Source: Escherichia coli
GTDB lineage: Bacteria; Pseudomonadota; Gammaproteobacteria; Enterobacterales; Enterobacteriaceae
Assembly (NCBI RefSeq): GCF_045037415.1
Contig: NZ_CP173438.1
Strand: one strand, 5' to 3'
DNA: 64,000 nt
A model generated the notes under the pieces. That model was not told the origin of the DNA. It did not search any database and was given only the letters and a program-made list of their open reading frames with translations. A program made the translations under genes and the position numbers. Shown here piece after piece: positions 59,763 through 60,818 of the stretch. Within the stretch, counting starts at the first letter, position 1; every line of letters begins with the position of its first letter.

Positions 59763-60818
59763 TTATGCTTTCCACTTCAGAACACCCGAATTTCTCGCGT
59801 GCATTAAAAAACGAATCAGCAACAACAGCTGGCTGCCGTGTTTTTCTTCAAAATCTTTTACCCCGGCGTGTAGTTCGCTATGGCATTTACGGCACAGCGG
59901 AATAACAAACAAATCATCAGCCTTTGTTCCCATCCCTCCCAGTCCATGACCAATGATGTGATGCGGATCATCTGCCTGATTGCCACACGTCATGCATTTC
60001 TGCGTTTTTACCCAACGCGTGTATACAGGCATCTCTTCCCGTTGTGATTTCTGGCGCTGGAGATACTGAGCCGGTGACTCCGGATCAACGGCAATGCTGA
60101 CCACCGTCTTTTCCTGTGGCGGGTTTTGCTGGTGGGCGTGAGGCAGCGGCGCAAGATTTTTTGTGCGCTGCTTCAGTATGCTGGTGGCGGTCTGCTCTCC
60201 CGGTACGATGTCGCTTTCACGGTACATTGAGCGGATTTTTTCCGCACGCAACCCCAGCGAACGACGTAATACCGCTTCCGGTAGCGCGTCCGCCACCTGA
60301 TTGCGGACCGCCCACCAGGATAATTCAGCCAGCGATAATTCCCGTTCCTGCGAGCCATTCATTGCATGGCGTATGACGTCAATCATCCATGCAAACAGGT
60401 TTTGGTGAGCAAGTTGCCCGAGTGATTCGGAGGTCTGGTCGCGCAGCTGGTTGTCGCAGTGCCAGCACAACACCATTGCGCCGGTACCATAACGGTGAAT
60501 GACGGTTTCACTGTGGTGATAATCGCCGTGTGGCCACTGGCAGGATTTAACATGGCGCAGTAACCAGTCAGACAATGCGCCAGCGCCACCAGCAGCACGA
60601 ATCACTCGTTCGTCGCTGAAAAATGGCAGTAATGATTTATCCTCCGCCAGCGGCTGGCGAACGGCAGGAACGACCCCGGACGGCAGATTACGCATGCTTT
60701 TCGGTTCCGGCTCCACCAGTACCCGGGTATTGTGGAATACCGGCATGGATTCACGGCCCGGCTTAACGATCACCAGCCCGAGTTCCGGTACCAGAACAGG
60801 TCGAAGTAATACCCGCAC
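59763..60818 (-). CDS. DUF968-family prophage protein with HNH-like Cys/His cluster
   Basis: 351 aa; C-terminal CMTCGNQADDPHHIIGHGLGGMGTKADDLFVIPLCRKCHSELH; common nin-region gene of lambdoid prophages. Confidence 0.6.
   Translation of the reverse strand: MRVLLRPVLVPELGLVIVKPGRESMPVFHNTRVLVEPEPKSMRNLPSGVVPAVRQPLAEDKSLLPFFSDERVIRAAGGAGALSDWLLRHVKSCQWPHGDYHHSETVIHRYGTGAMVLCWHCDNQLRDQTSESLGQLAHQNLFAWMIDVIRHAMNGSQERELSLAELSWWAVRNQVADALPEAVLRRSLGLRAEKIRSMYRESDIVPGEQTATSILKQRTKNLAPLPHAHQQNPPQEKTVVSIAVDPESPAQYLQRQKSQREEMPVYTRWVKTQKCMTCGNQADDPHHIIGHGLGGMGTKADDLFVIPLCRKCHSELHAGVKDFEEKHGSQLLLLIRFLMHARNSGVLKWKA

Follow-up and report, generated by a model that had tools for sequence, protein, structure and literature searches.

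Two characterised phage nucleases, Ref of phage P1 and Gp16 of the Staphylococcus phage phiNM1, work together with RecA. Ref cuts only RecA-bound DNA and D-loops; it is toxic and raises lethality during the SOS response. Gp16, an early nickase of its phage, binds the RecA of the host, which stimulates it; it stops the host from replicating, and without it the phage DNA does not replicate normally (NAR 2026, PMC12817073). In lambda, the slot of the nin region just before Q is held by Rap/NinG (PF05766), a branch-specific endonuclease of the HNH type with a predicted C-terminal His-Me finger, which acts on D-loops and Holliday junctions (PMC5714182, PMC4118853). Here we describe a ydfU-type gene (DUF968 family) lying directly upstream of rusA in a lambdoid prophage of Escherichia coli strain 439, within a stretch of 64,000 nucleotides of contig NZ_CP173438.1 (RefSeq assembly GCF_045037415.1), hereafter called the window. 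Our analysis suggests, with moderate confidence, that it encodes an HNH nickase, stabilised by zinc and dependent on a metal, which would be produced in lytic growth and would act on recombination or replication intermediates, possibly on RecA-bound DNA, and whose N-terminal half would serve in targeting.

The family itself has been described before. DUF968 and DUF1364, the family of YbcO, were placed together in group 7 of the His-Me finger nucleases by Jablonska and colleagues in 2017, who noted RusA and Q as neighbours of DUF968 and proposed a role in recombination (PMC5714182). An earlier study had recognised a zinc-finger HNH motif in DUF968 and had noted that the domain also occurs fused to Erf, Rad52 and RusA (PMC4118853); these fusions (PMC4118853, PMC5714182) speak for the reading proposed here. 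The original prediction, made from the letters of the window, had called DUF968 proteins functionally undefined, and indeed a review of the K-12 'y-ome' still listed YdfU among the uncharacterised genes in 2024. The family, its HNH/His-Me class and the recombination proposal are thus already in databases and literature. What we add is the connection to Ref and Gp16, an unclassified N-terminal zinc domain, and the conserved unit formed by a small open reading frame (ORF), ydfU and rusA.

The gene appears in the program-made ORF list as 351 codons plus the stop on the minus strand; the length agrees with the one first given, and the strand, which had been left out, can now be added. Its product is identical to the RefSeq protein WP_001265085.1, 'DUF968 domain-containing protein', annotated at the same coordinates, and shares 79% identity over its full length with YdfU of the K-12 Qin prophage (b1560). 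The Qin protein belongs to the same Pfam family, is encoded upstream of Q and has a predicted His-Me finger, but no rusA follows its gene and it carries a different allele of the HNH half, with CRKHH in place of the CRKCH of the window. The 2.2-kb cassette around ydfU occurs in 4777 of the 5426 complete E. coli genomes; about 100 phage records carry it too, and many of these come from Shiga toxin (Stx) phages. The gene of the window is therefore a common allele, an expected and already annotated member of a family that is known but uncharacterised.

Membership in DUF968 (PF06147), as first proposed, is clear from Pfam, the model covering residues 160-343 with 215.4 bits against a cut-off of 27.8 (E 6.9e-64). 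The full protein also matches HNHc_6 (PF16784, 'putative HNHc nuclease') over residues 260-327, with 30.3 bits for a curated cut-off of 26.6; the isolated C-terminus scores 32.2 bits, a marginal match which overlaps the far stronger DUF968 one. HNH and HNH_5 match the isolated C-terminus below threshold, and PHROG 96, annotated 'HNH endonuclease', spans the full-length protein. Neither NCBIfam nor the PADLOC defence models matched the protein, neither Pfam nor NCBIfam pointed to a regulator or to a helix-turn-helix protein, and Pfam showed none of the DNA-binding modules NUMOD and AP2, intron and intein features being absent as well. Confident homology to a characterised non-nuclease family, which had been named as the result that would overturn a nuclease role, did not emerge from the Pfam, NCBIfam, PADLOC or PDB sequence searches. 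As to relatives in the PDB, queries with the whole protein and with a 31-sequence profile gave only insignificant matches to YbcO and McrA, or none.

In zinc-stabilised HNH sites, two Cys pairs hold a structural zinc, the His which ends strand 1 is the general base, an Asp occupies the 'N' position, and the His that immediately follows the second Cys pair is a ligand of the catalytic metal. The terminal CxxC...HH...CxxCH cluster of the original prediction can be read in these terms as C275-x2-C278, H286-H287 and C309-x2-C312-H313, to which H317 has to be added. We followed these positions through an alignment of 31 full-length homologues with 25-96% identity. C275, D302 and P307 are kept in all 31, H287 in 28, H286, H313 and H317 in 27 each, C309 in 26 and C278 in 25, position 312 being Cys in 15 and His in 10. 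The cluster is therefore not a chance pattern. The domain has the beta-beta-alpha metal fold; the putative catalytic His closes strand 1, and a His occupies the metal-binding (His/Asn) position where the helix begins. Its best fold match is P1 Ref (3PLW; score 8.6, 82 residues aligned with 23% identity), followed by YbcO (3G27; 6.5), and then by the HNH domains of IscB, Cap5, McrA and GVE2, with scores of 4-6. The fold and the conserved motif support, as a predicted function, the metal-dependent nucleic-acid-binding or nuclease role put forward originally.

The comparison with the two RecA-associated nucleases can be made residue by residue. The motif reads C96xxC99, H112 H113 and C130 R W H133 H134 in Ref, C145xxC148, H157 and C181 R E H184 H185, H189 in Gp16, and C275xxC278, H286 H287 and C309 R K C312 H313, H317 in YdfU, which thus matches both. 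The catalytic positions of YdfU align with mutated residues of Ref (H134) and Gp16 (H185 and H189). H134 belongs to the nuclease-dead H134/153A variant of Ref; Gp16 cannot inhibit growth without C148, C181 and H184, and it needs C181 to cleave DNA (PMC12817073). At the sequence level, a profile of the YdfU C-terminus scored 30.6 bits against Gp16, 13.8 against YbcO and 5.3 against Ref. Gp16 is also alike in its HNHc_6 relation and in its setting: its gene, an early one, belongs to a replication/recombination cluster and has rusA within a few genes. YbcO (DUF1364), from DLP12 and phage 82, is a single domain of 96 residues, without the N-terminal domain or the linker of YdfU. The closest fold and sequence relatives of the YdfU HNH domain are Ref, YbcO and Gp16, and not the proteins of the gp74 type. 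Rap/NinG is comparable in another way: it occupies the analogous slot of the nin region, but it falls in His-Me group 24 and YdfU in group 7, and NinG (PF05766) was absent from the Pfam results for the window protein even at E values up to 10, so that the analogy is one of position and proposed role and not of membership. As part of the explanation which we favour, and with the same moderate confidence, we infer that the C-terminal module has an intact catalytic site and works as an HNH (His-Me finger) nuclease.

Selection on the gene could be followed among close relatives, in 80 related IMG/VR loci (85-100% identity) found with a 12-sequence alignment. All 78 testable loci have an intact ORF with a GTG start, and together they represent 58 distinct alleles. 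Key residues are all kept in these alleles apart from the Cys/His alternation at position 312 and a single H313R, H287, D302, H313 and H317 being present in 57-58 of the 58. Relative to the window allele, the ratio of non-synonymous to synonymous polymorphism (pN/pS) is 0.15 for the whole protein, 0.13 for the N-terminal domain and 0.25 for the linker, the HNH domain having the lowest value of all, 0.05. Purifying selection acts on the gene.

The N-terminal half holds a second Cys/His cluster, which the original prediction had missed. Pfam recognised no family in residues 1-159 in any of 46 members, and a PDB sequence search with this half alone gave only chance matches; the domain corresponds to PHROG 11007, of unknown function. 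It is nevertheless well conserved and modelled with confidence, with an AlphaFold2 predicted local distance difference test (pLDDT) of 92.9. Within the tetrad, C93 and C118 are kept in all 31 homologues, position 101 is Cys in 18 and His in 12, position 121 is His in 23 and Cys in 8, and W119 and D122 are nearly invariant. In the predicted model, a helix (78-89), two strands (105-110 and 113-118) and a short helix (119-125) give a helix-knuckle-hairpin-helix unit, whose elements follow one another as they do in the C-terminal HNH domain. The best fold matches of this beta-beta-alpha unit are indeed HNH domains, but it has no conserved catalytic His. A Foldseek search of the N-terminal model against BFVD returned nothing at E ≤ 0.001 (best E 0.25). 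We also considered an internal duplication. In a profile-profile comparison, the two modules aligned colinearly with their Cys ligands paired, but 15 of 200 column shuffles equalled the score, and the hidden Markov model of the N-terminal module did not score above about 3 bits with Ref, Gp16 or YbcO; the sequences thus give no significant support for a duplication. The second HNH-like zinc module thus stands as a structural lead and not as an established fact.

The linker joining the two halves is predicted to be flexible, pLDDT falling below 50 for residues 230-238; in the 31-member alignment, D245, P256 and K257 show little or no variation. Compared with K-12 ydfU (L003, 3256-4305), the protein is 83-97% identical as far as about residue 240, where identity drops sharply to 50-77%; the two halves therefore recombine as modules at the linker. 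More widely, a HMMER search of 1.84 billion cluster representatives gave 1954 relatives, many of them full-length at 25-50% identity. Some long proteins among the hits link the N-terminus of YdfU to pieces of tail-fibre, portal or capsid proteins, and some short proteins carry partial Dam, MT-A70 or LexA fragments on a YdfU C-terminus. Since the partner domains are mostly truncated, we read both kinds as prophage deletion chimeras, neither true architectures nor clues to function. Those fused in frame (P0028, P0056, P0058, P0008 and P0039, with tail-fibre, tail-tip, portal or capsid partners), which are present in public protein sets and seem to result from large internal deletions as prophages decay, could mislead searches based on domain architecture.

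Coordinates of the ydfU-type gene, its domains and its neighbours in the window.
Feature	Position	Strand	Remarks
YdfU-family (DUF968) coding sequence, 351 aa	59763..60818	-	GTG start at 60818-60816, read from the sequence; TAA stop at 59763-59765
N-terminal domain, residues 1-160	60339..60818	-	small beta subdomain, helices and predicted Zn-binding unit; no Pfam model
HNH-like beta-beta-alpha zinc module, residues 78-152 (structural lead)	60363..60587	-	putative tetrad C93, H101, C118, C121; conserved W119, D122
Linker, residues 188-262	60033..60257	-	partly disordered; conserved VDPExP...PK motif; mosaic junction between alleles
C-terminal HNH / His-Me finger nuclease domain (activity predicted), residues 263-351	59766..60032	-	putative Zn ligands C275, C278, C309, C312; putative general base H287, with H286, D302, H313, H317
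Shine-Dalgarno GGAGG	60823..60827	-	4 nt before the ydfU GTG; read from the sequence
rusA (Holliday-junction resolvase)	59382..59762	-	Pfam RusA, E 2e-16
Q-type antiterminator	58564..59385	-	Pfam Antiterm, E 5.6e-51; overlaps the end of rusA by 4 nt
Upstream 90-codon ORF	60820..61092	-	PHROG 1212, unknown function; no Pfam family; translationally coupled to ydfU
Terminator-like stem-loop and T-run	61174..61191	-	between hok and the 90-codon ORF; consensus scan only
hok/sok type I toxin-antitoxin locus, complete	61262-61587	-	RefSeq hokD; sok RNA 61412-61587, Rfam 120 bits

The gene sits in an early operon. On the minus strand, cI/cro-like genes and replication genes are followed by DUF1627, DUF977, QueH, hok/sok, the 90-codon ORF, ydfU, rusA and Q, and then by a DNA methyltransferase, two tRNAs and the lysis genes. 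A position between the hok locus and rusA had been proposed originally; rusA does adjoin ydfU, but on the other side the 90-codon ORF intervenes before hok/sok. The ATG of rusA begins on the base right after the TAA of ydfU, and the two genes are translationally coupled. The TAA of the 90-codon ORF (60820-60822) likewise lies inside the 4-nt spacer between the strong Shine-Dalgarno sequence and the GTG of ydfU. In the IMG/VR loci, rusA is directly downstream of ydfU in 80 of 80 and the small ORF directly upstream in 74 of 80; a homologue of this ORF (47% identity, E 4e-21) also precedes a YdfU that is only 50% identical. Its product could be a partner or a regulator of the nuclease. It is not the K-12 Rem protein, a candidate which we rejected, and only its residues 25-90 match PHROG 1212, so that its annotated start may be too far upstream.

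In six distant homologue loci, the gene always comes after replication genes and before Q or lysis genes, with RusA adjacent in one and two genes upstream in another. In a third (L005), the RusA slot between ydfU and Q holds a 112-aa ORF resembling PD-(D/E)xK enzymes (1112-1450, plus strand), with sub-threshold matches to DUF1064 (22.7 versus 24.7 bits) and to T7 endonuclease I; it may have replaced RusA without being its orthologue. Neither the window nor the six distant loci place the gene next to terminase or portal genes, where HK97 gp74 lies. The K-12 ydfU gene is preceded by a Rho-dependent terminator which ranks among the strongest measured and belongs to a group said to keep toxic prophage genes silent. 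Because of this terminator, and of the terminator-like hairpin upstream of the gene in the window, ydfU is probably a delayed-early gene which needs antitermination and is silent in the lysogen.

Other features of the prophage deserve mention. QueH, an epoxyqueuosine reductase encoded at 61655-62341 (minus strand; Pfam E 1e-65) between DUF977 and hok, is full-length, a tRNA-modification enzyme carried as phage cargo in the early region near two phage tRNA genes. The latter (56637-56713 and 56814-56889, minus strand) lie downstream of the methyltransferase; ARAGORN identifies a tRNA-Arg(TCT) and a tRNA with a CAT anticodon, labelled Met by ARAGORN and Ile by RefSeq. The methyltransferase itself (N6/N4 type, 349 aa, 56939-57988, minus strand; Pfam N6_N4_Mtase E 2e-44) directly follows Q, at the site where Stx phages carry toxin or moron cargo. 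The late-regulatory region further contains a strong Rfam match to the small RNA STnc100 (132 bits, 55751-55940, minus strand).

How could such a protein work? In the reading that we favour, YdfU would be a delayed-early protein of lambdoid prophages made of two zinc-binding modules joined by a flexible linker. C275, C278, C309 and C312 would hold the structural zinc, the general base would be H287, where strand 1 ends, and H313, together with H286 and H317, would hold the catalytic metal. During lytic growth, the enzyme might nick D-loops, RecA-coated DNA or branched DNA, and this nicking would feed or complement the adjacent RusA resolvase, YdfU filling the slot that Rap/NinG holds in lambda. 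The N-terminal module would most likely have a non-catalytic targeting role, toward a DNA structure or a partner such as RecA. The link to RecA is suggested because both characterised relatives, Ref and Gp16, work with this protein. A more specific version makes YdfU the lambdoid counterpart of Ref and Gp16, a nickase of RecA-bound DNA or D-loops which a degenerate, non-catalytic HNH-like module in a hitherto undescribed N-terminal domain would target and which would form a functional pair with RusA or with a PD-(D/E)xK enzyme, perhaps with the small upstream protein too; we offer it tentatively, as a possibility that is rather doubtful in its full form.

Several observations weigh against this proposal. 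The likeness to Ref is structural only, the score of 5.3 bits being insignificant, and the Ref family model of Pfam, RecA_dep_nuc (PF16786), does not match the window protein. The basic, disordered, DNA-binding N-terminus of Ref (76 residues) is absent from YdfU, which has a folded domain of 160 residues and a linker in its place, and the genomic context also differs, ref lying next to cre/c8 in P1. Nor does YdfU have the Orf/NinB-like N-terminal domain of Gp16. The catalytic histidines are lost in four distant homologues (P0082, P0084, P0102 and P0111), and therefore catalysis is not required in every lineage. The linkage to RusA is not universal, since RusA is absent nearby in two of the distant loci and in K-12 Qin. 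Finally, we found in the literature no biochemical or genetic data on any YdfU or DUF968 protein.

The main rival explanation, which overlaps our own, is that the nuclease serves host takeover rather than phage recombination: it would nick the host chromosome, block forks and condense the nucleoid in favour of phage replication, much as is reported of Gp16 and of the lethality that Ref brings about. Gp16, which among characterised proteins is nearest in sequence to the HNH domain, inhibits both the growth and the replication of its host, Ref is toxic and makes SOS more lethal, and the K-12 terminator belongs to a set said to silence toxic genes. However, the tight coupling to rusA and the recombination/nin slot point to processing of phage DNA, and intact copies are present in most E. 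coli genomes, so that we regard takeover as rather unlikely. If, on the other hand, the HNH-like motifs served only folding and DNA binding, YdfU could be a non-catalytic zinc-finger protein regulating, for example, transcription or replication. The four homologues without catalytic histidines and the apparently non-catalytic N-terminal module fit this idea, one DUF968 member bears the database label 'phage transcriptional regulator' (PMC5714182), and inactive His-Me fingers exist, as in Smad MH1 and Enpp. The retention of H287, D302, H313 and H317 in 27-31 of the 31 homologues and in nearly all close alleles, the very low pN/pS of the HNH domain and the lack of any helix-turn-helix or regulator match make it improbable.

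Three further explanations take the HNH domain as active and assign it to other processes. HNH domains are common among homing endonucleases, and the swapping of the HNH half between alleles at the linker junction could be taken as the mark of a selfish enzyme which spreads by cutting alleles that lack it. Such an element would not be expected to keep a fixed syntenic position in an operon with translational coupling, to occur in most genomes instead of sporadically, to be under strong purifying selection over the whole protein, or to lack intron and intein features and NUMOD and AP2 modules, and we consider homing very unlikely. A nuclease of prophage defence or anti-defence, acting in superinfection exclusion or counter-defence, is to our mind just as hard to sustain. 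Accessory regions of prophages often carry defence genes, HNH effectors occur in retron systems and in cyclic-oligonucleotide-based anti-phage signalling systems (CBASS; Cap5 is among the fold matches), and the same nin region harbours moron-like cargo (hok/sok, QueH); but PADLOC models found no match, a gene placed behind terminators in an antitermination-dependent early operon should be silent in the lysogen, and ydfU is a conserved core gene of the nin region rather than variable cargo. Least probable of all is a packaging helper which, like HK97 gp74, would aid cos cleavage by the terminase. Helpers of this kind are widespread phage HNH proteins, but their genes adjoin terminase. At every locus examined, ydfU lies between the replication genes and Q, separated from terminase by several kb and the lysis cassette, and its nearest relatives are not of the gp74 type.

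In conclusion, YdfU-type genes are present in most sequenced E. coli, including in Stx phages, yet they belong to the 'y-ome' without known function. As the family is known, the finding is unsurprising and its interest modest, but an intact and strongly constrained nuclease domain, whose nearest relatives include two phage nucleases working with RecA, together with the coupling to rusA, raises a directly testable question. If YdfU were the counterpart of Ref and Gp16, most E. coli genomes would encode a nuclease which exploits RecA. Such an enzyme, made upon prophage induction, could alter phage yield and the recombination among prophages that helps to drive mosaicism in Stx phages; it could also change how well SOS-inducing antibiotics kill, an effect demonstrated for P1 Ref.
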